A stretch of DNA of 40,137 bases, taken from the sequence record PP079211.1; one strand, given 5' to 3'. The stretch comes from Escherichia phage phiHAO1-1. Position numbers and translations under genes: made by a program. Every line of letters begins with the position of its first letter. Positions within the stretch are counted from its first letter, which is position 1. Shown here in pieces: positions 40,033-40,137 of the stretch. A model generated the notes under the pieces. It ran no database searches. It was not told where the DNA came from and was given only the letters and a program-made list of their open reading frames with translations.

Positions 40033-40137
40033 TCTCACAGTTCAAGAACCTCAAGTCTCCCCATAGGCCCTCTTTAAGTCCAGACCAAAGGCCCTACCCG
40101 TGCCAGTCTATCATAAGGTTGGACCGATGGTCGAGAC
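40033..40137. repeat. Proximal part of the terminal repeat (continues at window start)
   Basis: TCTCACAG at 40033 matches the first bases of the T7 genome; the window runs out 105 bp later. Confidence 0.4.

Follow-up and report, generated by a model that had tools for sequence, protein, structure and literature searches.

A terminal repeat predicted to be split across the ends of the genome record of the K1F-like Escherichia phage phiHAO1-1

The genome of Escherichia phage phiHAO1-1 (PP079211.1), which we analysed over its whole length of 40,137 nt and refer to as the window, is that of a K1F-like Kayfunavirus of the T7 family (Autographiviridae, Studiervirinae). Homology to relatives with mapped ends indicates that it carries one terminal repeat, with a predicted length of 183 bp (range 182–187 bp), which is made up of positions 40033..40137 joined to positions 1..78. 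The window is very probably one unit of a linear, terminally redundant Kayfunavirus genome, whose two direct terminal repeat (DTR) copies were merged into one by a circularised assembly, the record then being opened 105 bp inside the repeat. All the sequence-level features of a T7-type short DTR that we tested for were found, while the second copy and the exact ends are predicted from homology.

Results

A megablast search with the first 25 kb of the window matched 698 phage records, and many Kayfunavirus records showed 92–97% nucleotide identity over 86–92% of this segment, the top match being Escherichia phage phiHAO2-2 (PP079212.1, 97.4% identity), with a large group of Kayfunavirus genomes behind it at 92–95%. 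Both this high nucleotide identity and the collinearity with EcoDS1 and phiHAO2-2 place phiHAO1-1 in the genus Kayfunavirus. The first gene, gene 0.3 (671..1006, + strand), encodes an Ocr-like anti-restriction protein (phrog_2568, 1.6e-54) and has the same coordinates as in phiHAO2-2, and gene 1 (2686..5367, + strand) encodes a single-subunit RNA polymerase (PF00940, 3e-106), which is expected to pause at the junction described below. The window has a T7-type terminase, composed of the small subunit encoded by gene 18 (36766..37029, + strand; PF11123, 3e-12; phrog_1351, 1e-34) and the T7-type large subunit encoded by gene 19 (37577..39340, + strand; PF22530 Terminase-T7_RNaseH-like, 5.8e-38; phrog_38, 3.5e-131). 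The last gene, gene 19.5 (39637..39795, + strand; phrog_2193, 4e-23), is annotated as gp19.5 in EcoDS1 and BUCT788. Genes for gp2.5, endonuclease I (gp3), gp3.5 amidase, primase-helicase (gp4), DNA polymerase (gp5) and gp6 exonuclease were also present, as were structural genes for the portal and the capsid and a tailspike gene of the endosialidase type. No RNA genes were detected when the whole window was scanned with Rfam and for tRNAs.

At its 3′ end the window reads ...GAGACCACA TCTCACAGTTCAAG..., and at its 5′ end it reads GTTAGGTCAACG.... An earlier note, made from this DNA alone, had matched TCTCACAG at 40033 to the first bases of T7 DNA, which is correct, since T7 likewise starts with TCTCACAGT. 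The 8-mer is found at 40033–40040 and again at 17609, with 0.53 copies expected per strand, so that on its own it is not significant. The same note had matched a 15-mer at 71–85 to the end of the T7 terminal repetition; the match was confirmed at 14/15 positions and its place was corrected by one base, as TGTGTCTCTATCTGT is present once in the window, at 70–84, and corresponds to T7 152–166 (TGTGTCCCTATCTGT), where it straddles the end of the 160-bp repeat of T7 (CCCT/ATCTGT; here and below, a slash within a sequence marks the border). When the two window ends were joined, the resulting 182-bp sequence matched 243 phage records, with E values of 2e-75 for BUCT788 and 4e-66 for bases 1–178 of K1F. 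The joined repeat matched the first 176–181 bases of K1F, EcoDS1, CR44b, GA2A, Peacock, Penshu1 and others, several of them with a second match in the same record. The significance of the match therefore lies in its context, that is, in the joined sequence and the junction, and not in the bare 8-mer.

The left part of the repeat (40033..40137, + strand, 105 bp) aligned from base 1 of K1F, EcoDS1, SH3, Peacock, Emlis, Midid and Bia, the records of which all start with TCTCACAGTTCAAG, and the right part (1..78, + strand, 78 bp) finished at the homologous end of the exact DTRs of the relatives. The identity to the Kayfunavirus repeats was 88–95% (E down to 2e-75), with a coinciding start and an end within 77–82. 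Based on this homology to relatives with mapped ends, the virion DNA is predicted to have its left physical end at 40033 (+ strand, TCTCACAG...) and its right physical end at position 78 (+ strand, ...GTGTCTCT), with a possible range of 77–82. A 4-bp insertion, GTGC, was observed at about 40097–40100, in the left half of the repeat, which is nearly invariant elsewhere. Among the aligned genomes it is common only to the window, phiHAO2-2 and BUCT788, and because of it the repeat of the window is 4 bases longer than that of most relatives.

We computed exact DTRs, defined as a prefix identical to the suffix, from the linear records of K1F, EcoDS1, SH3, Emlis, Midid, Bia and T7, and every one of them begins with TCTCACAG. 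The exact DTR measured 178 bp in EcoDS1 and 179 bp in each of Emlis, Midid and Bia, with the right end at ...TCTCT/ATCTGT in these four genomes, which thus end with ...T/ATCTGTAT. In K1F (NC_007456) it measured 178 bp and ended one base earlier than the EcoDS1-type border (C/TATCTG), in the SH3 record it measured 184 bp and ended four bases later (TATCT/GT), and in T7 (NC_001604) it measured 160 bp and ended at CCCT/ATCTGTT. The right border is spread over up to 6 bases among the records of the relatives. The EcoDS1 record is annotated with a "terminal repeat" and a "concatemeric junction", the latter at CTATCTGT, while Peacock (DTR of 179 bp) and Penshu1 carry the annotation "direct terminal repeat predicted by PhageTerm", and in GA2A (KT990215.1) the terminal repeats are annotated as repeat_region. 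Run-off Sanger sequencing of phage DNA gave repeats of 183, 190 and 190 bp for SH3, SH4 and SH5, respectively (PMC4925675), and a length of 179 bp has been given for the repeat of K1F (Scholl and Merril 2005, as cited in PMC4925675).

Two annotated layouts were rejected as models. The annotated DTR layout of EPr2 comprises four repeat copies and looks mis-assembled: in this Providencia phage (OM256482.1), positions 1–679 and 40583–41261 each consist of a repeat, about 321 bp of unique right-end sequence and a further repeat, an arrangement also seen in PP328844.1. All four copies are annotated as DTR, and the arrangement looks like an assembly or re-orientation artefact. The annotated repeat lengths of GA2A, 165 bp on the left versus 197 bp on the right, are internally inconsistent. 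At the right end of GA2A, about 33 bp of the repeat are duplicated in tandem and the sequence does not reach the usual border; no exact prefix = suffix repeat was found in this record.

The earlier note had proposed one repeat of about 190 bp, split across the window ends and running from 40033 to about base 90. The split and the start at 40033 agree with our results, but we obtained a length of about 183 bp and an end at about 78, so that the proposed end lies some 10 bases too far to the right, and a repeat reaching about base 90 was rejected, since conservation and the exact DTRs of all the relatives stop at 77–82. In a nine-genome alignment, conservation collapsed directly after TATCTGTAT, from window base 89. 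A real repeat with limits materially other than 40033..78, extending for instance for about 190 bp to near base 90 or displaced by a lineage-specific shift, would be in keeping with the 190-bp repeats of SH4 and SH5, with the end of SH3 lying 4 bases to the right of that of EcoDS1, and with the 4-bp insertion in the repeat of the window, phiHAO2-2 and BUCT788. Nevertheless, the exact DTRs of six close relatives terminate at the equivalents of window 77–82, conservation is lost past TATCTGTAT, from base 89 on, and the T7 repeat ends at the equivalent motif, which makes such displaced limits unlikely.

A 443-bp query that joined the end of the window to its start (39940..40137 followed by 1..245) was matched at a single location, with at least 80% coverage, in 91 records, the majority of them permuted assemblies with the junction in mid-record. 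The closest, BUCT788 (95.9% identity), crosses the break point of the window without an indel (...GTC.AGAC/GTTAGGTC..., the slash marking the break point), indicating that the window boundary has neither lost nor doubled any sequence. A prefix = suffix search detected no literal overlap between the window ends, suggesting that an assembler overlap had already been trimmed; a search of the whole window detected no second copy of the repeat, which is present once, and the exact 32-mer across the break point had 0 matches among IMG/VR viral contigs. When rotated to 40033, the window was collinear with EcoDS1 over bases 1–39074, where 39074 directly precedes the right repeat of EcoDS1, and the first 183 bases of the rotated window also aligned to that right repeat (39075–39252). 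The window would therefore amount to exactly one unit length and contain a single copy of the repeat; its unique sequence carries the complete collinear set of genes, the first being gene 0.3 and the last gene 19.5, in agreement with the reading of the window as a whole genome in the earlier note. With one unit length and a 183-bp repeat, the virion DNA is predicted to measure 40,137 + 183 = about 40,320 bp.

These results bear on the alternative that the genome is linear, lacks a terminal repeat and physically ends where the window ends, the motif matches having arisen by chance. The frequency of TCTCACAG agrees with it, as the 8-mer alone is not significant (2 copies versus 0.53 expected). 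However, the break point interrupts a sequence that is contiguous in the 91 records and falls within the repeats mapped in K1F, EcoDS1 and SH3, and no relative with a demonstrated DTR ends there, only phiHAO2-2 (circular) and ASO2B having their start at this place. The junction found in 91 records, the collinearity with EcoDS1 and the join in BUCT788 refute this alternative in practice, and we give it virtually no weight.

The position of the record start points instead to the assembly. The phiHAO2-2 genome was deposited as circular and its start base is identical to that of the window, 105 bp inside the repeat, which is a sign of a circularised assembly that was cut open at a base chosen arbitrarily or by the pipeline, and bears out the earlier suggestion that the record begins within a collapsed repeat. 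The record of ASO2B (MZ726794) starts within 3 bases of the window's start. These coinciding or nearly coinciding starts suggest that the records came from one pipeline or were oriented along a reference, and not that a biological end lies here.

Sequences flanking the repeat were also conserved. Alignment columns 40000–40067 (68 bp, spanning the left cut site) were 100% conserved in 9 genomes, and no other block of the junction region is as well conserved. The 33 bp directly upstream of the left-end cut site (40000..40032, + strand) are invariant and include the palindrome TTTTGG-A-CCAAAA (40007–40019), and these 33 bp may serve as a signal for recognition or cutting by the terminase. The 68-bp block also argues against a truly circular or circularly permuted genome, packaged by a headful mechanism and lacking fixed ends, in which the likeness to the T7 and K1F termini would be merely inherited. 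Such a genome would fit the single repeat copy, the seamless join of the window ends and the circular label of phiHAO2-2, but it is hard to reconcile with an invariant block spanning the cut site, with a terminase of the T7 type and with relatives at 88–95% identity whose ends are fixed, as determined by run-off sequencing, PhageTerm and exact-DTR assemblies. We therefore consider it very improbable, and with a T7-type terminase and fixed ends in its close relatives, phiHAO1-1 would not be placed among the headful, circularly permuted phages.

Upstream of the repeat (39957..39994, + strand) we found the heptamers CCTACGG, at 39957, and CCTACAG, at 39971 and 39987, and downstream of it (114..205, + strand) five ACCTACAGT repeats. 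In the window, CCTACAGT has 16 copies versus 1.58 expected, five of which are clustered at 115–205. The CCTACAG(T) heptamers at 39971, 39987 and 115–198 flank the repeat in a layout like that of CCTAAAG in T7, which has two copies (39671 and 39700) before the right repeat and eight copies, at 175–332, just after the left repeat. A perfect 15-bp palindrome, TGTTATAGTATAACA, was observed at 89–103, just past the border of the repeat; the window shares it with phiHAO2-2, BUCT788, EPr2 and Midid, Emlis has the one-base variant TGATATAGTATAACA, and it is not found in K1F, EcoDS1, SH3 or Bia.

A phiOR-like phage RNA polymerase (RNAP) promoter, TAACTATCACTATAGGGAAGA (39438..39458, + strand), reads rightward through gene 19.5 and the repeat and was assigned by positional homology to phiOR of EcoDS1 (38500–38522) and of T7. 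Its core, TCACTATAGG, occurs at 9 sites in the window, all of them intergenic. A possible phiOL variant, TCACTATGGG, which is one base off TCACTATAGG, was observed at 270–279, the position of phiOL in T7. In K1F, SH3, Midid, Bia and EPr2 the corresponding bases are CACCATG(A/G)GG, without the core, and phiOL may therefore be lineage-specific. The consensus scan gave a single good site for a sigma-70-like promoter, at 459–488, and the counts from sigma-70 and terminator consensus scans of both window ends did not exceed those obtained with shuffled sequence.

At the right border of the repeat lies ATCTGTA (79..85, + strand), a putative class-II-like pause motif for the phage RNAP ('concatemer junction' signal) that shares 6/7 bases with the ATCTGTT of T7. 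It is contained in TATCTGTAT (78–86), which was invariant in 9 Kayfunavirus junctions. Its context is that of a class II signal, with a T (base 78) before the core, where A, C or T is called for, a location on the + strand and a place at the right border equivalent to T7 base 161, and it is found about 800 bp downstream of the phiOR-like promoter, oriented with transcription from it. On the non-template strand at the junction, the strict seven-base class II core ATCTGTT was not found, ATCTGTA being present instead, and because of this one-base difference we refer to the motif as class-II-like and not as a member of the class. The pause site of T7 is the class II signal ATCTGTT, which leads to termination 6–8 nt downstream (bioRxiv 10.1101/2021.01.11.426313; bioRxiv 10.64898/2026.02.12.705533), and for T7 RNAP any base change in it has been reported to abolish termination (bioRxiv 10.1101/2021.01.11.426313).

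In 6/6 complete Kayfunavirus genomes, the sole + strand copy of ATCTGTA is the one at the repeat border, and ATCTGTT is present in 2–3 + strand copies, located inside genes; in the window, HATCTGTT is found at 5183, 7967 and 11441. The pattern is reversed in T7, in which ATCTGTT is present on the + strand at base 161 only, with ATCTGT occurring 3 times on the + strand versus 15 on the − strand. It is possible, though doubtful, that the K1F-type RNA polymerases use a shifted class II pause signal, ATCTGTA and not ATCTGTT; with so few occurrences, counted in genomes that are related to one another, these numbers are only a hint of it. If so, the junction signal and the polymerase would have co-evolved, providing an orthogonal short terminator/polymerase pair. 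The ATCTGTA variant is genus-wide and is a mildly interesting by-product of the analysis. An inverted copy of TATCTGTAT, which reads ATACAGATAG on the + strand, was observed at 39594–39603, between phiOR and the ribosome-binding site of gene 19.5. It is kept in phiHAO2-2, EcoDS1, K1F, Midid and Bia, and the 9-mer has 2 copies versus about 0.3 expected, but the region is conserved throughout, which limits the weight of this excess.

Discussion

Our preferred explanation for the split repeat is that the assembler closed the genome into a circle, which would have collapsed the two direct terminal repeat copies to one and left the opening base arbitrary. The virion DNA would then begin with TCTCACAG (40033), comprise the whole window and finish in a second copy of the repeat, which ends with GTGTCTCT. 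Terminal repeats allow replicated genomes to be linked as concatemers, and packaging and maturation require them (Chung et al. 1990, as cited in PMC4925675).

The steps of the mechanism that we propose are established for T7 and predicted by analogy for phiHAO1-1. After replication, the complementary single-stranded repeat ends would anneal to produce head-to-tail concatemers with one repeat per junction. In T7, the repeat must be duplicated in processing, since the junction holds one copy only. In phiHAO1-1, the phage RNA polymerase would transcribe rightward from phiOR and, together with gp3.5, would pause where the right border of the repeat carries the class-II-type signal, and the paused polymerase complex would engage the gp18/gp19 terminase. 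The terminase would cut at fixed sites and the repeat would be duplicated, leaving a copy at both ends of each packaged genome. Pausing is the least secure of these steps for phiHAO1-1, because the motif differs from the ATCTGTT of T7 at the seventh base.

A split repeat is a common assembly artefact and implies no new biology; terminal repeats of this type are already documented for T7, K1F, EcoDS1 and SH3. The record would be better re-opened at 40033, with the second 183-bp copy added or annotated, to give the correct length (about 40.32 kb), ends, and first and last features. Correct ends matter for comparative genomics, for genome rebooting and engineering, and for the regulatory descriptions of therapeutic phages.

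With respect to known systems, phiHAO2-2 is 98–99% identical to phiHAO1-1 across most of the genome and shares with it the single collapsed repeat and the GTGC insertion. It is 838 bp shorter, and the early region diverges (window about 1100–2400 and about 5660–7600); these two segments show 78–90% identity or no match in phiHAO2-2 and EcoDS1, and the difference in length is due to early segments that differ or are missing there.

The repeat of K1F is about 90% identical overall to that of the window and its first 62 bases are identical (TCTCACAG...CCCTACC). The two phages also share the right border, GTCTC TATCTGTAT, the invariant 33 bp upstream of the repeat and the CCTACAG arrays. They differ in the GTGC insertion and in some substitutions in the right half of the repeat that are found in the window, and in their records, since that of K1F is linear with both copies at its ends, whereas the window has one copy, split by the start of the record.

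As in the window, the repeat of T7 starts with TCTCACAGT, has an internal CCCCATAGG block and ends just before ATCTGT. In both phages heptamer arrays flank the repeat, two copies upstream and many downstream, phiOR and gene 19.5 lie upstream, host promoters and gene 0.3 lie downstream, and the terminase is gp18/gp19. In contrast, the identity between the two repeats is about 60%, and the repeat of the window measures 183 bp versus 160 bp in T7. The heptamer of the window is CCTACAG, with none inside the repeat, while that of T7 is CCTAAAG, with three inside the repeat, and the pause core is ATCTGTA in the window and ATCTGTT in T7.

Citrobacter phage SH3 belongs to the same genus, and its repeat has the same start and a homologous end, although the right border lies 4 bases further to the right in its record (TATCT/GT) and the identity is about 85%. 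With its ends located by experiment, SH3 is the experimental precedent for the end positions predicted here (PMC4925675).
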